From IMG/VR virus record IMGVR_UViG_2654587792_000035, positions 1 through 7,341 of that record: DNA of 7,341 bases. The stretch is one strand, 5' to 3'. The position numbers and the translations under genes are program-made. How positions within the stretch are numbered: the stretch's first letter is position 1; the number at the start of each line of letters is the position of its first letter. This DNA is from a virus (taxonomy: Duplodnaviria > Heunggongvirae > Uroviricota > Caudoviricetes). The notes beneath the pieces were generated by a model that was not told the DNA's origin, did not search any database, and saw nothing but the letters and a program-made list of their open reading frames with translations. Shown one piece after another: positions 5,367-5,589 of this stretch.

Positions 5367-5589
5367 CTGTTCACCACTGTTCACCCTGTTATAAATATCT
5401 TTTATATCAGTATATTATAGGGTGAACAGTTATTTATGAACTGTTCACCAAACTATTCACTGTTCACCTTTTTGATTGTTTATTGAGCTTCAAGGGTGAA
5501 CAGTGGTGAACAGTTGGTGAATAGTTTTTGTGAAACTGTTCACCCCTTAACATTATGAATTAAAAGATAAAATATCAAAAGGTGAACAG
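5367..5589. repeat. Origin of replication: 11 copies of the 9-bp iteron CTGTTCACC / GGTGAACAG (9 perfect, 2 degenerate) in both orientations, flanked by AT-rich stretches
   Basis: Perfect copies at 5367, 5377, 5441, 5460, 5536 (CTGTTCACC) and 5421, 5495, 5505, 5581 (GGTGAACAG); degenerate copies at 5453 (CTATTCAC) and 5516 (GGTGAATAG). Adjacent copies are spaced 10-11 bp apart. AT-rich tracts lie at 5391-5420 and 5545-5580. The region starts 14 bp after the rep stop codon, as in SaPI/PICI-type replicons. Confidence 0.75.

Follow-up and report, generated by a model that had tools for sequence, protein, structure and literature searches.

Replication origins comparable to the one considered here have been described in phage-inducible chromosomal islands (PICIs) and in the satellite phage P4. 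In the PICI EcCICFT073, the origin region is needed, together with rep, for plasmid maintenance, and a rep-ori plasmid assay gave significantly fewer colonies once this region was deleted (PMC6092414). In P4, the initiator alpha carries a winged-helix origin-binding domain that lies C-terminal to its superfamily 3 (SF3) helicase (PMC2777425), and the P4 GenBank record labels the sequence TGTTCACC as 'ori type 1 repeat' in both ori and crr; that alpha binds these iterons is taken from this annotation, from PMC2777425 and from general knowledge of P4. The stretch analysed here, 7341 bp of the IMG/VR record IMGVR_UViG_2654587792_000035 (hereafter the window), represents essentially the whole of a small Gram-negative PICI, with int, alpA, rep, a repeat array and ssb, the genes all on the plus strand. 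Comparison with the above systems indicates, at a probability of roughly 85%, that positions 5367-5597 are the Rep-dependent vegetative replication origin of this island. The kind of element, a rep-adjacent iteron origin of a PICI, is already described.

The array is built from copies of CTGTTCACC, an iteron that includes the P4 type 1 repeat. Nine exact copies and one with a single mismatch, 10 in all, fall within the 223 bp of 5367-5589, and two degenerate copies with two mismatches each sit in register with better copies in relatives (Table 1). A preliminary description of this locus had counted eleven copies ending at 5589; the repeats are real and do occur in both orientations, though the count is better given as 10 solid plus two degenerate copies, and the second degenerate copy extends the array to 5597. 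Its placement of the first iteron 14 nt past rep holds, given that the stop codon occupies 5351-5353 and that 5367 is the 14th base beyond. The 10-11 bp phasing that it proposed applies to well-matched neighbours within clusters, whereas the other start-to-start spacings of the 12 sites range from 7 to 45 bp (in order: 10, 44, 20, 12, 7, 35, 10, 11, 20, 45 and 8). Across the whole window, CTGTTCACC is matched 13 times at no more than one mismatch, compared with 1.50 +/- 1.23 times in shuffled sequence (200 shuffles, maximum 5), an enrichment that rules out a chance or low-complexity repeat. Iterons are also more conserved than the DNA between them: in an alignment of eight homologous origins, 73% of iteron columns are invariant versus 42% of spacer columns (Fisher p = 2.6e-6), and the TTCACC core columns reach 86%. 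Copies resembling CTGTTCACC outside the array, at 124, 4043 and 4074, are at chance level. The latter two form an inverted iteron-like pair inside the rep coding sequence (4043-4051 and 4074-4082; one exact, one with one mismatch) that is likewise within chance expectation; its exact member recurs in a related island (L001; NZ_CP031653.1, 5141-16448), and the pair is not counted as part of the origin.

Together, the iterons form a 231-bp imperfect palindrome of two inverted modules, each composed of two iterons, an 83% A+T spacer of ~35 bp, one inverted iteron and three further iterons. The full order is thus two plus, A+T, one minus, three plus, centre, three minus, one plus, A+T and two minus, and the reverse complement of the right-hand module (R) aligns both with the left-hand module (L) and with P4 ori. 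The A+T-rich interleaving noted in the preliminary description is confirmed, each spacer standing well above the 52% A+T of the window. Spacer L holds the least stable 31-mer of the window (dG -27.3) and spacer R the second least stable (dG -30.0), the mean being -42.0 +/- 3.8. The single-stranded array folds into one long hairpin (z = -8.1); a structured RNA was considered and rejected, with no Rfam family at gathering score anywhere in the window. The sole perfect integration host factor (IHF) consensus of the window (WATCARNNNNTTR) lies inside spacer L, at 5405-5417. A similar box, TCAGTAnnTTA, occupies the same position in P4 ori, P4 crr and the EcCICFT073 origin, despite the differing iterons there. 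Neither DnaA boxes (at up to two mismatches) nor GATC sites occur in 5300-5700.

An intergenic array of this kind might alternatively serve mainly as a transcriptional operator, through which Rep or another protein controls whether transcription reads through into, or starts at, the ssb operon downstream. It does separate rep from the genes that follow on that strand (the small open reading frame [ORF] and ssb), and the initiators of iteron plasmids often autoregulate through their own iterons. However, 5250-5950 yielded neither a sigma-70-like promoter nor an intrinsic terminator on either strand, the array lies downstream of rep and not at its promoter, and both its layout and its iterons are those of known origins, leaving an operator role very improbable.

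Among PICIs, the origin of EcCICFT073 is also located 3' of rep and has sites of the same number, order and orientation as those in the window, although its iteron is CTGTCTACC (of the TGTCTACC class) rather than TGTTCACC. Rep is 49% identical to EcCICFT073 Pri-Rep, with only 33% identity between their DNA-binding domains. An origin with TGTTCACC iterons, as in the window, is found in the reference PICI EcCIRM13514 (PMC6092414), the Rep of which is 95% identical in the helicase core; origin DNA of the EcCIRM13514 type is ~77% identical to that of the window, as measured on a locus (L004) that appears to carry the same cassette. The window also shares the general traits of Gram-negative PICI origins, with the array immediately 3' of pri-rep and iteron sets flanking A+T-rich DNA, and their context, a unidirectional int-alpA-pri/rep island (type size about 8-12 kb) at a PICI-specific attachment (att) site. 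For origins of the Staphylococcus aureus pathogenicity island (SaPI) type, specificity lies in the Rep C-terminus. In PMC6092414 they are summarised as rep followed by ori, with iterons flanking an A+T-rich stretch. This organisation resembles that of the window, with sequence homology confined to the ATPase core; the iteron sequences appear unrelated, and the SaPI primase is active either as a separate protein or in fused form.

A collinear and 99.5% identical copy of the island is present in Escherichia coli 2017.18.02CC between cspD/yljB and clpS, and this cspD-clpS att site is also used by EcCIIHE3034, a published Gram-negative PICI (PMC6092414, Table S1). The earlier assignment to a PICI-type rep-then-ori replicon is therefore upheld, both by the int-alpA-rep-ssb island at the EcCIIHE3034 site and by a layout 3' of rep that matches the EcCICFT073 origin. 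EcCIIHE3034 shares its backbone (int, alpA and att site) with the window but itself carries the other of the two rep-ori cassettes; combining this backbone with an RM13514-type cassette, the window island is therefore a recombinant of known modules.

The window shares with P4 the type 1 iteron TGTTCACC, present in both orientations. Module L is colinear with P4 ori (2 + spacer + 1 inverted + 3), conserved spacer box included, and the helicase and origin-binding domains of Rep are ~50% identical to those of alpha. These alignments establish that the window module is homologous to P4 ori, and the C-terminal domain of Rep to the origin-binding domain of alpha. The two systems differ in that the window has a single compound site, whereas P4 has separate ori and crr sites, both required in cis, at a distance of 4.5 kb; in that the modules are inverted in the window and direct in P4; and in that alpha has a zinc-finger/DnaG-type primase domain that Rep lacks. 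The P4 genes sid, psu, delta, epsilon and cnr are all absent from the Pfam and PHROG results and from the RefSeq annotation of the same island. In Xenorhabdus and Photorhabdus (loci L046-L095), many primase-bearing genes of the P4-alpha type are followed, ~45 bp past the stop codon, by a TTCACC cluster of ~200 bp; its sites are in plus orientation on the left and minus on the right, a dyad like that of the PICI origin and unlike the direct repeats of E. coli P4 crr. In the Pasteurella satellite Pmp7, the 170 bp that separate the primase gene from the integrase gene contain no iterons, which is uninformative, and searching the literature with the octamer alone gave unrelated primer sequences only.

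The 605-aa length given for Rep in the preliminary description holds provided that translation begins at the ATG at 3536, in line with the RefSeq annotation of relatives. Although the product is annotated as 'DNA primase family protein' in those relatives, the name helicase used in that description is preferable, with D5_N and SF3 helicase motifs present and the P4 primase domain absent. The Walker A (GPGGSGKS) and RRR arginine-finger motifs are intact, and residues 145-595 share 51% identity with P4 alpha. The core is also distantly homologous to structure 7OLA, which we take to be the SaPI5 primase-helicase, in a weak match confined to the ATPase core (E 2.7e-10). Iteron binding had been assigned to the C-terminal ~120 aa; the C-terminal location is supported by the match to the alpha origin-binding domain (1KA8), the P4-type iteron and the co-variation at residues 570-584 set out below, while the domain measures nearer 100 aa. 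The first 144 aa do not align to P4 alpha and contain no Cys, hence no zinc finger. Within them, the N-terminal ~135 aa form a portable, TOPRIM-like domain. It shares 74% identity with the N-terminus of an unrelated helicase, the RepA-type protein of EcCI042. Neither the canonical Glu nor the DxD is present, and the domain is probably catalytically inactive. Foldseek comparison of a model of this domain against the PDB gave no significant match, and a single-sequence AlphaFold model of full Rep (pLDDT 34) was unusable.

Co-variation of iterons and initiators was followed in a set of 79 homologues of Rep drawn from other Enterobacterales; in nearly every case an iteron cluster lies no more than 450 bp 3' of the stop codon. 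Five iteron classes are represented (TTCACC, TCTACC, CTCCAC, TGTCCG and TGTCCA), and the class-discrimination score along Rep residues 150-600 peaks at 570-584. Three homologues that use TGTCTACC have cores 89-93% and domain bodies 81-85% identical to those of Rep, but share only 33% identity at 570-584 and carry a 5-aa insertion there. Conversely, P4 alpha, ~50% identical elsewhere, retains both KRxTKxG at 570-584 and the same iteron. This 15-residue stretch, which may be the wing of the winged helix, is hence a candidate determinant of iteron choice, on statistics that are indicative only.

Table 1. Features of the window and of the putative origin (positions in the window; iteron orientation in brackets).
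Feature	Position	Strand	Evidence or remarks
Integrase	1-1239	+	Pfam
AlpA	1572-1868	+	Pfam
DUF4222 protein	between AlpA and Rep		
rep, 605-aa replication initiator/helicase	3536-5353	+	Pfam D5_N, DUF5906/SF3 helicase, Pox_D5
Rep N-terminal ~135-aa portable domain	3536-3940	+	TOPRIM-like
Rep residues 497-593, winged-helix origin-binding domain	5024-5314	+	1KA8 (P4 alpha origin-binding domain), E 1.8e-24
Rep residues 570-584 (MKRKTKHGLRSNVTL)	5243-5287	+	candidate iteron-specificity stretch
Origin module L	5367-5468		5367(+), 5377(+), A+T spacer, 5421(-), 5441(+), 5453(+, degenerate), 5460(+); colinear with P4 ori
Exact CTGTTCACC or complement (starts)	5367(+), 5377(+), 5421(-), 5441(+), 5460(+), 5495(-), 5505(-), 5536(+), 5581(-)		
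A+T-rich spacer L	5386-5420		83% A+T; candidate unwinding element
Degenerate two-mismatch iteron	5453-5461	+	CTATTCACT
Central spacer at dyad axis	5469-5494		26 bp, 73% A+T
Origin module R, mirror image of L	5495-5597		5495(-), 5505(-), 5516(-, one mismatch), 5536(+), A+T spacer, 5581(-), 5589(-, degenerate)
One-mismatch CTGTTCACC copy	start 5516	-	
A+T-rich spacer R	5545-5580		83% A+T; second candidate unwinding element
Degenerate two-mismatch iteron	5589-5597	-	plus-strand letters GGTGAAGGG
Small ORF	between origin and ssb		PHROG 1231; annotated 246-nt coding sequence in relatives
ssb, single-strand DNA-binding protein (SSB) gene	5884-6306	+	part of replication module; Pfam SSB 7.3e-16
DUF1441 protein	3' of SSB		

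The origin region is widespread, occurring in 594 of 5426 complete E. coli genomes (~11%), and ssb comes after the origin in every related island examined. Some copies sit in islands embedded in prophage terminase genes, a configuration published for helper-embedded PICIs (PMC10111431). L001 fits this arrangement: its rep-ori cassette is 99.8% identical and its island, flanked on either side by DUF1441 genes, lies inside the gene for a prophage terminase large subunit. One cassette is therefore carried by more than one integrase backbone. Elsewhere in the window, a 272-aa plus-strand ORF at 1879-2697 is probably not a gene; in its place, RefSeq annotates two short minus-strand genes in an identical island, for a hypothetical protein and a YlcI/YnfO family protein (about 2214-2519). 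Two further differences from relatives lie beyond the origin. At 5658-5665 the window has eight A where relatives have seven, which frameshifts the N-terminus of the small ORF; the extra A may be a true mutation or an error of sequencing. In the closest relatives, which are otherwise 99.9% identical, the interval from ssb to the DUF1441 gene (~6306-6485 in the window) holds ~2.5 kb of additional DNA, including a ClpP-like protease/major capsid fusion gene that is missing from both the window island and the 2017.18.02CC copy.

Several points weigh against assigning origin function to 5367-5597. The assignment draws on homology, and the melting site is predicted from thermodynamic stability. The co-variation statistics treat as independent a set of homologues that are related, and so overstate their independence, and EcCICFT073 and another homologue (L020) share an iteron class yet differ in sequence at 570-584. 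In P4, moreover, the cluster immediately 3' of alpha is crr, which is annotated as required in cis and distinct from ori, and initiation takes place at the distant ori. The window array occupies the same position relative to its initiator gene, and position alone is therefore no proof that replication initiates there. By analogy, the array might be a crr-like accessory site acting in cis, either by enhancing initiation or by setting copy number through handcuffing or titration of Rep. Against this, neither the window nor either of two complete related islands (L001, L014) has a second iteron cluster of the kind that would make an ori and crr pair, and there is therefore no other candidate ori; the modules fit the 2+1+3 layout of P4 ori better than that of crr; and deletion of the equivalent EcCICFT073 region lowered colony numbers in the plasmid assay cited above (PMC6092414). 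A purely accessory role is thus improbable.

The missing capsid gene and the frameshifted small ORF further suggest that the island may be partly decayed, in which case the array could be a well-preserved origin that is no longer used. Both lesions are consistent with such a relic, the loss of the ~2.5-kb capsid-protease gene relative to the closest relatives and the extra A in the homopolymer beside the origin. Yet Rep retains its full length and intact helicase motifs, each of its domains being 98-100% identical to the counterpart in L001 and L008, the iterons are all intact, and the region is 99.8% identical to that of many other genomes. PICI capsid genes, in addition, are reported not to be needed for transfer (PMC10111431). 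A disused origin is accordingly given little credence, and a functional, Rep-dependent origin remains the preferred interpretation.

If the array is such an origin, a mechanism can be proposed from its layout and from the domains of Rep. Helper-phage induction would lead AlpA to turn on the rightward operon, and Rep would be produced. Its C-terminal winged-helix domains would bind the iterons, with residues 570-584, the putative wing, reading the central bases, and the 10-11 bp spacing of sites would align bound Rep along a single face of the helix, to either side of each A+T spacer. These spacers would then melt, allowing SF3 helicase domains to assemble on the opened DNA. Replication of P4 is bidirectional and of the theta type. 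In the window, the dyad symmetry could likewise let two helicases load in opposite directions, possibly one per module, for bidirectional theta replication; the two opposed hexamers suggested in the preliminary description are compatible with this symmetry, as a matter of speculation. Island-encoded SSB would coat the single strands. Priming would probably be left to host DnaG, given that the P4 primase domain is absent from Rep and that the TOPRIM-like N-terminal domain has lost the catalytic acidic residues.

The locus provides an example of a satellite-island origin that is unmarked in public annotation and was recovered from raw sequence. Beyond the accessible literature, it makes two modest additions: the description of a PICI origin as two inverted P4 ori modules with the P4 iteron, and the nomination of residues 570-584 as a candidate specificity stretch, which offers a handle on replicon specificity and on possible cross-talk between satellites. 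Because the TGTTCACC iteron and the KRxTKxG motif are common to both, this PICI lineage and P4-like satellites, which often occupy the same E. coli hosts, could conceivably recognise each other's origins, and swaps of 570-584 could re-target specificity, though this is a tentative and rather unlikely proposal. If true, P4 alpha might either trigger initiation at the PICI origin or block it, PICI Rep, which has no primase domain, might bind at P4 ori and crr, and swaps of residues 570-584 would define incompatibility groups among satellites.
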